Shown here: positions 21,001 through 24,000 of the stretch, piece by piece
Layout: each line of letters opens with the position of its first letter
Numbering within the stretch: the stretch's first letter is position 1
Origin: a virus
Lineage: Monodnaviria > Loebvirae > Hofneiviricota > Faserviricetes > Tubulavirales > Inoviridae
Reading direction: 5' to 3' (one strand)
IMG/VR virus record: IMGVR_UViG_2778261316_000006
DNA: 33,304 nt
Position numbers: made by a program

Positions 21001-24000
21001 TAACAAGAGCCTGAGATACACGAATAATAATCTGGTCTTGCTTAGTGCCACCAAAACCATCAGGAATCTCTAAGCCAACACCAATTTCATTATAGTATCC
21101 CTGACCATTGACCTTATTACGCTGGCGAGCACCAAGCATTTTACCTTTTACAAAAAGACCATAATTAGACATATCACTCTCCTTTAATGCCAGTTACTGG
21201 CATGTGAAATACGGTTATAATCGAAAATTAAACCTTTCTCATAAACCCATGATGGAATTTTGGCTGGTTTGGCTTCAAGAGTACGAACCAACGGAACAAC
21301 GTTATTAGAATCCGGTGACTCACAATAAAAGTTAATATCTATTCCGAAAGAAAGTAATTCTTTACGGTGTCGGTAGAATGTAGGTTTCGGTAACATCTCT
21401 TTCATGTTCGCGCCCTGCTTCCACAATAAATATGTAGACTGTATTTTTCTTGGGAGATTAATTATTTTTTCATCAGTTAATATGGTATTTTGATTCATTT
21501 CTATTCTCCCTACATAGTCAGAGAATAATTTATTGGGCGTCTCAATATTCCAGCTATTACCAAGCGTAAGATTCAAATCAATTAATTCAGTTGTTCTTAA
21601 TGTTAATTCAATGCGTAATTTATCTTTTGACCAGTCCAGTAAACCAGCTTTAACGAATTCGTCTGCCATCTGGTGCCCTTTTTTGCCAGATGTATGCTCA
21701 TCATATTTTGAATAAAATTTCAGGCTCCAACGACGGGAGTTTTTCCCTAAGTAAACAGTGCCACCTTTACCACAGGCGCGACCGTGGCGAGTTTTAGCTT
21801 TAAATTCTGCGGCATATAACCATGCGCGGACATTTTCTAATGTTGACAATGAATACATGTAATTGATATCGATGCGCGAGATCTTAAATTGCCCTTCCAT
21901 GACCTGCCGATAGGATGGTAGATCATGAGGAATATGCAGTAATGCCAATATTCTGGCGTAAGCTGTTAACACCAACCCTTGCAAATCGTCGGAACCGATA
22001 ACAGAGTGACCTTGCAAAAACTTTGATGGATTACCGTCAATGTAGAGATGTGTTGCCCGACCTTCACCATCAGATCCAACAGACCTTACTTTCATTGTGG
22101 ACTCATGCGAACCGCGAACTGTCAACCGTTTTACTGTTTCCCACTCCACTGCACCGTCAGCATTGACGCTGACGACACTACCAGCCGGTAACGGTCGGTG
22201 TGTGCAAGGCAGGATTCCGGTAAACCAGTCGATCATAAGTAGTCACACCCATCAAAATATGTGTCAATAGTCATTTGTGAGCAGATTGAATGGTCACAAT
22301 GTAATATGCTCAGATCTGACAGTCAATACATTTGCAATGTTTAAATTGTCAGAAATGAGCATCAAATCTAACTATTGAAAAACCACTGTTAAGATGGAGC
22401 CAAGTAGATGGGCAACAATGAGCATGAAGTTATGGCGGACAAACAGAGAGCAGAACGTATCAAAAAGGTAATTCTGGAACACTCGACTTATGAAGAACTG
22501 GCCGAGAAGACTGGCATTAGCGTGAGTACGCTGGTCAGGATAGCGTCCGGCAAAACTGAACCTAAATTCAGTGACATCATTCAGATAGCTAAAATTACTG
22601 GTGCAGACTTAAACACCTTAGCTTATGGCTATGCTCTTGATGTTAAAGAAGAAGCTACCGAGCGGAAGCTAATCACTTCTGCGGATGGATATACTGATGA
22701 AGAAACCACTAACGCACATAATTTCATCGTGTGGAACATCAGGACACTGGAAAAACAAGATATTCTGGCACTCGCAAGGCAGGTTTCTGCCTTAAGTTCA
22801 TACACTTACAGTACTAAAATGTTTATGAAAAAAGCGGTGTCTGGAGAAGAGTAAAAGGATTAACAGTCTCAGGAATGAGACAAACGTGCAGTATTACCAA
22901 CACTGCACGTTCTTTATTGTGCGAATTTTGAACAGTGAAAAAGGATCAAAAGGATGAGTAGAAACAACGAAACAAGCGGCGTTGAACTGGTTGTCGTCGG
23001 CGTATTTGCTTTCTGTCTGGCAGTTGTTGCCTGGCTAATGAAAACTTTCGATGTTGAATGGCAAACAGCACTGGAAACTGCGCCTGGCCTGATAGTCTGG
23101 CTGCTTGTTGTCGGGGCGGGGATCTTTTTCGGGATCAAAATGGAAACAGGTCTTGTTCGCTGGGGTGCTCCACTGGCGATTGCCCTTCTGATTCCGGTAT
23201 TCAAACCAATCCTTAAGGAAGCTGCCGGAGTACGTGAAACGGGTGGATTGGTTTTCGATGATATGGTTTCGTGGTATGGAACTGGCTGGGGAATGTCGTT
23301 GATGTTTTTCGGAATTCTTATCATCGGATACGGGCTGCTTTATTGGTGGCACAGAAGAAATTCATATTACTGGTAATCAATAAAACGTAGAAGAGAGGAA
23401 ATATATGAAACTGAATCCTGAGAAATACAATAGAAATATCACCCTGCTATGTCCTGTGTGCGGAAATACAGAGATGGAACACGAGGAAGAGTCTGAAGTC
23501 GTCAGATGTGTAGGCTGCGGGAAAGAATTCACTAATGATGATTTAATCCAAGAAAACGGGGTGAGTATTGACGCCCATGTGGATGAGATAAAAGAAGAGT
23601 TAACAAAAGATATTCAAAAACAGTTTAATGATATGCTCAAAAAGGCATTTAAAGGAAGTAAAAATATAAGGATTAAATAATGACAACGAGTGATGCCATC
23701 GCTTTAGCTGCGCTTGTAGTATCGATTTACACTATCATATCATCAGAAGTGAAGTCGAGAAAAAGTGATAGAGAACAAAAGGTTATAAAGGATGAGCAAG
23801 ACAGGTTACGTAAGTTGCTTCTAGAAAAAGAAACAAAGTCAGCAATTAATGAGATGAAGGCTGAGCTTGGTGCCCGCCTCGTAAAAATAGCCAAAAACAA
23901 CTATAGACTCAAGATATTTAATAGAGGGAAAGTTGAGGCTAAAAATATAGAAATTCATTTCCCTGATAACGATGGCAATGAATATCTTTACATGCATGAT

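Follow-up and report, generated by a model that had tools for sequence, protein, structure and literature searches.

In the cholera-toxin phage CTXphi, a small repressor, RstR, is encoded divergently from the rolling-circle initiator gene rstA, which is equivalent to pII, and its operators lie in the spacer, ig-2. Divergent rstR alleles do not cross-repress. For eight of them, alleles 6 and calc included, repression of the ig-2 promoters is homotypic and allele-specific with no cross-immunity, and different CTXphi members co-integrate in one dif array, which the authors attribute to absent cross-immunity (PMC11509585). This heteroimmunity principle is textbook knowledge for CTXphi. Here we analyzed a stretch of 33,304 nucleotides from an inovirus record (IMG/VR IMGVR_UViG_2778261316_000006; the whole stretch is called the window), which holds two filamentous prophages, A and B. 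Each of them probably carries an RstR-type immunity cassette of its own, that is, a small repressor gene divergent from pII with cognate operators in the spacer.

Ypfphi of Yersinia pestis and CUS-1 of Escherichia coli O18:K1:H7 have the same gene order as phage B and the same dif/XerCD-type tandem integration. At the rstR position they carry a helix-turn-helix (HTH) gene, YPO2273, which has been called RstR-like and whose role "awaits experimental demonstration", and superinfection is partly held off by a Ypfphi already resident (PMC4266046). In the available portion of that account, accessory genes at the phage ends differ between members and operator sites are not defined. By description only, from the organization given there, phage B appears to belong with CUS-1 and Ypfphi. 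In the Pf phages of Pseudomonas, superinfection immunity is controlled by repressor C of Pf4 (Pf4r), likewise the repressor of a filamentous prophage (PMC8402870). The Pf lineage is a different one and integrates by an integrase; A and B are likened to Pf4r by role only. For phage A, an analogy may also be drawn with CopG/RepB of pMV158-type plasmids and Arc/Mnt of phage P22, where a small ribbon-helix-helix (RHH) dimer acts at repeated short sites and the initiator promoter is repressed. CopG is co-transcribed with repB and is not divergent from it.

The locus also differs from CTXphi. The hosts are Enterobacterales, the pII of phage A is If1-like and not RstA-like, and neither A nor B has ctxAB genes or the RS1/rstC antirepressor. 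What is new here is in the detail, namely the operator candidates, a fold for a small RstR-type family, and cassette families and operators common to enteric dif-phages and Vibrio phages. No new mechanism is revealed, and the locus is an ordinary further example of the CTXphi-type arrangement. It provides a candidate immunity switch, with named operator sequences, for the widespread prophages of CUS-1/Ypfphi-like and If1-like type in E. coli, Salmonella and related bacteria, and carries the rstR/ig-2 logic of the cholera-toxin phage into enteric bacteria through shared repressor families and operator motifs. It also offers immunity typing of these prophages, as rstR typing does for CTXphi, and predicts which phages can stack in one dif array.

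Regulators and Spacer Repeats of the Two Prophages

Self-comparison showed two dif-type filamentous prophages in the window, arrayed in tandem as A-A-B-B. Both units carry a complete filamentous gene set, with pII, pV, small coat proteins, pIII, pVI, pI/Zot and pIV on the minus strand. A preliminary description of this DNA had placed a small regulator divergently from pII in both phages, at the rstR position, and the gene coordinates and strands agree with this (Table 1). It had also taken the two regulators to be non-homologous and their spacers to carry separate repeated motifs; BLASTP found no similarity between the proteins, and different repeats were indeed found beside pII in each phage. 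Both features of an RstR-type cassette, a regulator divergent from the initiator and spacer repeats that co-vary with the regulator, were found in A and in B.

The phage B regulator had been described as a 148-residue XRE-type HTH protein, and the profile searches bear this out. The protein scored 38.1 bits against Pfam HTH_3 (PF01381; gathering cut-off 23; E = 1.6e-9; residues 27-68) and 28.3 bits against HTH_31, above the threshold of 27, and it matched phrog_3557, "transcriptional regulator", over its full length (4e-74). The HTH lies at residues about 14-75, and the C-terminal half is without a known fold. A GGAG is found 8 nucleotides 5' of the start; many annotations use M9 as the start (140 amino acids). 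The exact sequence occurs in at least 1000 contigs and falls in a 277-member cluster named from Enterobacterales, and homologues with 47% identity were found in Vibrio cyclitrophicus inoviruses.

The spacer between this regulator and pII contains three copies of the repeat unit GTCA-N4-TGAGCA, which has eight matches in the window against 0.06 expected. Sites 2 and 3 together form a long inverted repeat. We surveyed the sites in 15 B-type relatives (L009-L022 and L047) whose regulators are 85-100% identical. Site 3 was found at the fixed position -60 in all 15, site 1 at -138 in 14 (it is absent from L015) and site 2 at -101 in 14; all three were kept in 13, with substitutions confined to N4. 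The best candidate for the pII promoter is TTGACT-17-TACATT (-35 at 22326-22321, -10 at 22303-22298), and site 2 falls between its two hexamers.

Among the motifs that the preliminary description listed for this spacer, TGAGCA stands as part of the longer unit. GTCAATA was rejected as an operator: it recurs in spacers beside other regulators, and it contains the reverse complement of a -35-like hexamer, TTGAC, which it overlaps on the pII strand. For these two reasons GTCAATA more likely belongs to a promoter. In phage A, the coding sequence of pII contains one exact B-type site, GTCAGATTTGAGCA (minus strand, at 5822-5835 and 13520-13533), and a variant of it is present in the pII of E. coli UTAK-3. 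Cross-regulation of A by the B repressor through this 14-mer was considered and set aside, since six of the seven other A-like pII genes lack it; its presence is probably due to chance.

The regulator of phage A was described as a 78-residue RHH-like protein. The RHH-type assignment is supported by the fold of its family, considered below, but the alignment of homologues places the conserved start at M11 (6643), so that the protein has 68 amino acids and not the 78 counted from the first ATG. The family comprises 95 representatives at E ≤ 0.001, and the exact sequence is found under database names of Salmonella enterica and Gammaproteobacteria. The start of the phage A pII also had to be corrected: the 396-residue open reading frame (ORF) at 5398-6588 is pII over-extended by 25 codons, and in the homologues, as in the PHROG profile, the protein begins at the ATG at 6513. 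Because pII starts there, the first ATGYATRCAAG repeat falls outside the coding sequence, within the spacer. The region corresponding to pII in phage If1 is 80.6% identical to this protein at the amino acid level.

Five TGCA(T) motifs had been noted in the phage A spacer. The repeats are real, but they resolve to two direct ATGYATRCAAG repeats, 44 bp apart, and shorter ATGCA pieces. When 16 related spacers were searched for 9-mers without bias, with 30 shuffles as the control, words of the ATGTATACA type (ATGYATRCA-type) were recovered at least twice in 13 of the 16; the shuffles reached at most six. Common positions of these words are near -122 and -78, counted from the start of the regulator.

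From these arrangements we infer DNA binding, promoter positions, repression and immunity along the following lines. The 148-residue XRE protein of phage B would bind the three GTCA-N4-TGAGCA sites, one of them between the -35 and -10 hexamers of the likely pII promoter, and pII is the presumed target of repression. The 68-residue RHH protein of phage A would bind both ATGYATRCAAG repeats, one over the likely pII -35 hexamer and the other immediately 5' of the start codon of pII. With pII repressed, the resident prophage would no longer undergo rolling-circle replication, nor would any incoming phage that has the same operators. Neither regulator would be expected to repress the other phage, because both the proteins and the operators are unrelated; A and B would then be heteroimmune.

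Natural Exchange of Regulator and Spacer

The preliminary description had proposed a search for further immunity types in related prophages, and further cassette types were found. E. coli UTAK-3 and E. coli NCTC9040 each have a 371-residue pII that is 92% identical to that of phage A. In UTAK-3, the regulator slot holds a 162-residue XRE protein, 36% identical to the phage B regulator, and the spacer carries TATCAA/TTGATA repeats. In NCTC9040, where the downstream DNA is 96-98% identical, the slot (L002, 11215-11526) holds a 62-residue protein that is unrelated to the phage A regulator and 47% identical to the RstR of CTX-calc. The NCTC9040 spacer and the ig-2 of Vibrio cholerae CTX-calc (L055, 300-683) carry the same TTCTAAGA/CTTAGA repeats. 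Because both the protein and the spacer repeats match CTX-calc, this type of repressor-operator pair is conserved across genera, between Vibrio and E. coli. On the B side, the relative L043 has a pII that is 97% identical and a regulator that is 75% identical, and its spacer shows neither detectable similarity nor any B site; the DNA similarity to phage B ends at 22255 and returns at 22429.

The limits of the exchange could also be located in the A-type phages. DNA similarity ends at 6516-6519, 3-6 bp beyond the start codon of pII (6513), and returns at 6869-6874, at a 55-bp two-hairpin element. On the evidence of the swaps in UTAK-3, NCTC9040 and L043 and of these breakpoints, the repeats track the regulator and not pII, and the regulator and spacer behave as one exchangeable cassette. 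Exchange of repressor-operator cassettes between phages is thus supported by comparative genomics, and by the homology of the phage A regulator to annotated RstR proteins described in the next section.

The repeats might instead be replication-origin or pII-binding elements, as they adjoin pII, the intergenic regions of filamentous phages commonly hold origins, and the ultra-conserved hairpin at 6869-6923 implies that cis-acting DNA is present nearby. We regard this as very improbable. In the three swaps the pII proteins are 92-97% identical, and yet the repeats have been replaced wholesale with the regulator. The RHH gene and its ATGYATRCA-type motif, for their part, adjoin pII proteins that range from 93% identical to undetectably similar, so that the motif accompanies the gene across unrelated pII types. 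Repeats of the TTCTAAGA type likewise go with the CTX-calc RstR-type protein in both Vibrio and E. coli.

It may be that the enterobacterial dif inoviruses and the Vibrio CTXphi share one pool of at least three structurally unrelated cassettes (XRE HTH, RHH of the RstR-6/"environmental" type, and CTX-calc RstR type), exchanged across genera at two fixed breakpoints, the pII start codon and the 55-bp element, that the element promotes the exchange, and that If1, classically held to be "non-temperate", carries an overlooked RHH member. This wider picture is tentative, and taken as a whole we lean slightly against it. The 55-bp element itself matches If1 5052-5106 with 100% identity, and in E. 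coli relatives it persists behind three different regulator cassettes. In the Alteromonas phage phiAFP1 it is 98% identical over 46 nucleotides and directly follows an RHH-type regulator, and 17 IMG/VR inovirus contigs, one of them B-type, contain an exact copy of its 31-nucleotide core. A search of Rfam gave no match to the element; it may be an origin, a packaging signal, a terminator or a recombination hot spot.

Relationship to Annotated RstR Proteins

The phage A regulator was searched by tblastn against the phage collection. It matched annotated rstR genes in CTXphi GQ466611 ("environmental RstR; transcriptional repressor"), in pre-CTX KR063268 and in GU942563. Its pairwise identity to the KR063268/GQ466611 protein is 43% over 61 residues (E = 8e-19), and it is also similar to the "RstR-like" genes of the Vibrio phages VAI1 and VAI2. 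All of the matched genes are divergent from rstA. By these searches, homology to annotated rstR is found for phage A only.

The divergent rstR alleles of CTXphi include ET, classical, Calcutta, 232, 5, 6, ZJ, ZHJ and "environmental". The cloned rstR genes of ET, classical, 232, ZJ and ZHJ are 333-354 bp long, and those of calc, rstR5 and rstR6 are 180, 204 and 192 bp (PMC11509585). The rstR6 primer encodes MKKKYTSLRVS, which is the N-terminus of the phage A family; the phage A protein has MAEKKYTSLRVP and the Vibrio members have MTKKYTSLRVS. A link between the phage A family and RstR6 is accordingly offered as a lead, drawn only from the primer-encoded N-terminus and the gene length.

Co-Residence of Phages A and B

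The preliminary description had explained the stable co-residence of A and B by immunity modules swapped on related backbones. The comparison of the two units does not agree with this. The pII proteins give only a marginal alignment (E = 0.002) and pV gives none. Relatedness is confined to the attP hairpin and the morphogenesis genes, in which pIV, pI, pVI and the major coat protein are 47-62% identical at the amino acid level and the pIII C-terminus is 33% identical. On these alignments A and B are two different phages, with the whole replication-plus-regulation half different, and because they are different phages they would differ in immunity anyway. Outside the attP hairpin, the DNA of A and B is at most about 66-69% identical.

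Heteroimmunity is also not required for co-residence. Copies with the same immunity stand in tandem in the window (A-A and B-B) and in relatives. Ypfphi is found as two to four tandem copies, and a superinfecting Ypfphi integrates between residents despite the partial protection (PMC4266046). The regulators could therefore be real while co-residence came about in another way, by sequential XerCD integration at dif-like junctions together with tandem duplication, both of which proceed whatever the immunity type. The attP hairpins, which are 95.6% identical in nucleotides between A and B, imply that both phages use the same integration site. We consider this account of co-residence the less likely one, though it deserves serious attention. 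CTXphi repression is allele-specific and co-integration of its members has been tied to the lack of cross-immunity (PMC11509585), and tandems of the same type can come from duplication and not from reinfection. The alternative qualifies the explanation by two RstR-type cassettes and does not replace it. By analogy with CTXphi, heteroimmunity remains a reasonable candidate for a contributor to co-residence.

Repressors or Housekeeping Regulators

Several observations weigh against the assignment of the two proteins as RstR-type repressors. The phage B regulator scored 19.7 bits against the NCBIfam profile NF041951 (phage_RstR), below the cut-off of 80, and tblastn against the CTXphi records gave no match at E ≤ 1e-3. 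Because of these two results, we describe the B regulator as RstR-like in position and superfamily only, as far as homology searches go. The XRE regulator of UTAK-3 scored 21.2 bits against the same cut-off. The closest non-phage relatives of the B regulator (63% identical) are on conjugative plasmids. The hexamers of the promoter candidates are weak, and in B a hexamer search found no rightward promoter for the regulator. Full-length RstR6 was not found in two primer-based scans of viral contigs or in the family search.

The fold of the phage A regulator is a further point of this kind. The profile searches proposed for both proteins matched HTH_3 in B; unlike CopG, Arc and Mnt, the A regulator and its close homologues had no Pfam RHH family match even at E ≤ 10. 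The commonest Pfam match in its family was ParG (RHH), which was weak and found in 8 of 77 members (best E = 0.019), and there was one PutA RHH match. The AlphaFold model of the monomer has a disordered N-terminus and two helices, with a longer inter-helix loop and a longer second helix than in those repressors, and Foldseek against the PDB gave a best E of 4.4. A search of the family profile against PDB sequences gave nothing meaningful, and tblastn of the consensus RHH peptide against plasmids was uninformative. The fold was assigned from a distant member modelled on a two-sequence alignment: it is beta-alpha-alpha, with pairing between the N-terminal strands of two subunits or repeats, and it matches double-RHH proteins. 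This assignment was possible because tandem-duplicated members exist. Such single-chain duplications of the RHH unit occur naturally in P0175, P0184, P0216 and P0229 and would fit a dimeric DNA-binding unit.

The phage If1 is not known to lysogenise, and its RHH homologue lies apart from pII. Because of this, the RHH family may regulate replication or copy number rather than lysogeny. Both small proteins could then be housekeeping regulators, with a CopG-like control of copy number by the A protein and control of downstream accessory genes or host genes by the B protein. In pMV158-type plasmids, rolling-circle Rep promoters are normally under RHH repressors, as in CopG, which agrees with this. 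The B regulator is head-to-tail with three accessory genes, has close paralogues on the conjugative plasmids and gives a weak match to TrbA. Even so, we judge a housekeeping role improbable. Every repeated site lies between the regulator and pII and none lies downstream. A terminator-like pair of hairpins, which a simple consensus terminator scan did not flag, separates the B regulator from the accessory genes, and these genes vary among B relatives while the regulator-operator pair is retained. Repression of pII by a resident prophage would in any case confer immunity, whatever label the regulator is given. RstR-type cassettes remain our preferred reading of both loci.

Layout of the Array and Its Integration Sites

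The coordinates of the features are collected in Table 1.

Table 1. Features of phages A and B in the window and the positions of their second copies.
Feature	Position	Strand	Second copy	Basis or remark
Phage A unit, 7698 bp	1 to ~7414		repeat from 7699	self-comparison
Phage A pII, 371 aa	5398-6513	-	13096-14211	phrog_702 2e-106 from residue 26
Phage A divergent control region	6514-6642			direct ATGYATRCAAG repeats
First ATGYATRCAAG repeat	6521-6531		14219-14229
Second ATGYATRCAAG repeat	6565-6575		14263-14273
Phage A regulator, ribbon-helix-helix family	6613-6849	+	14311-14547	phrog_2503 1e-27
55-bp two-hairpin element, right boundary of exchangeable cassette	6869-6923		14567-14621	just after the A regulator
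attP-type forked hairpin, two inverted dif-like sites	7310-7420	-		unit junction; -36.4 kcal/mol, z -8.0
Equivalent attP-type hairpin	15012-15112			A-B junction
Equivalent attP-type hairpin	24163-24257			B-B junction
Phage B unit, 9145 bp	~15098 to 24242		repeat to window end	self-comparison
Phage B pII, rolling-circle replication initiator, 350 aa	21184-22236	-	30329-31381	Phage_CRI 1.3e-73, G2P_X_C 3.5e-34, phrog_702
Whole phage B cassette, control region to hairpins	22237-22920		31382-32065	recurs at +9145
Phage B divergent control region, 171 bp	22237-22407		31382-31552	between pII and regulator
Operator-like site 1, GTCATTTGTGAGCA	22270-22283	+	31415-31428
Operator-like site 2, GTCAGATCTGAGCA	22307-22320	-	31452-31465
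Operator-like site 3, GTCAGAAATGAGCA	22348-22361	+	31493-31506
Phage B regulator, 148-aa XRE-family HTH	22408-22854	+	31553-31999	HTH_3, phrog_3557
Two hairpins, then a T-rich run; terminator-like cassette end	22866-22920 (hairpins 22866-22911)	+		-15.5 kcal/mol, z -4.8

The unit junctions have the form expected of CTX-type prophages that integrate by XerCD at dif, that is, inverted dif-like sites in a forked hairpin together with tandem copies of the unit. The canonical E. coli dif 28-mer was not found in the window at up to three mismatches; the attP sites are more diverged. A search of Rfam gave nothing in the window at the gathering score, and in the region 6500-7450 gave sub-threshold matches only, all within the attP hairpin. 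The near-identity of the A and B hairpins suggests a shared integration site or a recent exchange at the junctions. Phage B is 99.9% identical to E. coli prophages, and near-identical B prophages adjoin hipA, in the dif neighbourhood of E. coli, often in tandem. Because of the tandem units, the forked hairpins with dif-like sites and the B relatives beside hipA, the prophages arrayed as A-A-B-B are of the XerCD/dif type, and both ends of the array fall outside the window. Megablast of phage B against the phage collection gave no match, and the A-B junction is absent from all complete E. coli genomes searched. Single contigs of exactly 7698 bp and 9145 bp are present in public data.

Relatives of the Regulators and Neighbouring Genes

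In If1 (L008, NC_001954.1), the "major intergenic region" contains an intact unannotated ORF of 62 residues (5125-5310, minus strand). It is 42% identical to the phage A regulator; ORF348 lies between it and pII, and the same 55-bp element follows.

Conjugative plasmids of about 41 kb from E. coli and Salmonella very commonly encode proteins of 122-127 residues that are 55-65% identical to the phage B regulator. In three contigs of about 41 kb (L005-L007), the gene, at 6001-6369, stands just after a resolvase gene and beside a type IV secretion (Trb/VirB) operon.

Three plus-strand genes follow the regulator in the accessory region of phage B (22954-24159, and 32099-33304 in the second copy). 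They encode a 140-residue membrane protein (phrog_4174), a 159-residue protein (phrog_6723) and a 91-residue CxxC zinc-binding protein of the ECs_2282 family, with a weak match to PADLOC PDC-S64 (E = 5e-7). In L043 the region is entirely different and contains a DUF3892 protein and others. Because its content differs wholly in this relative, the accessory region behaves as moron-like variable cargo.

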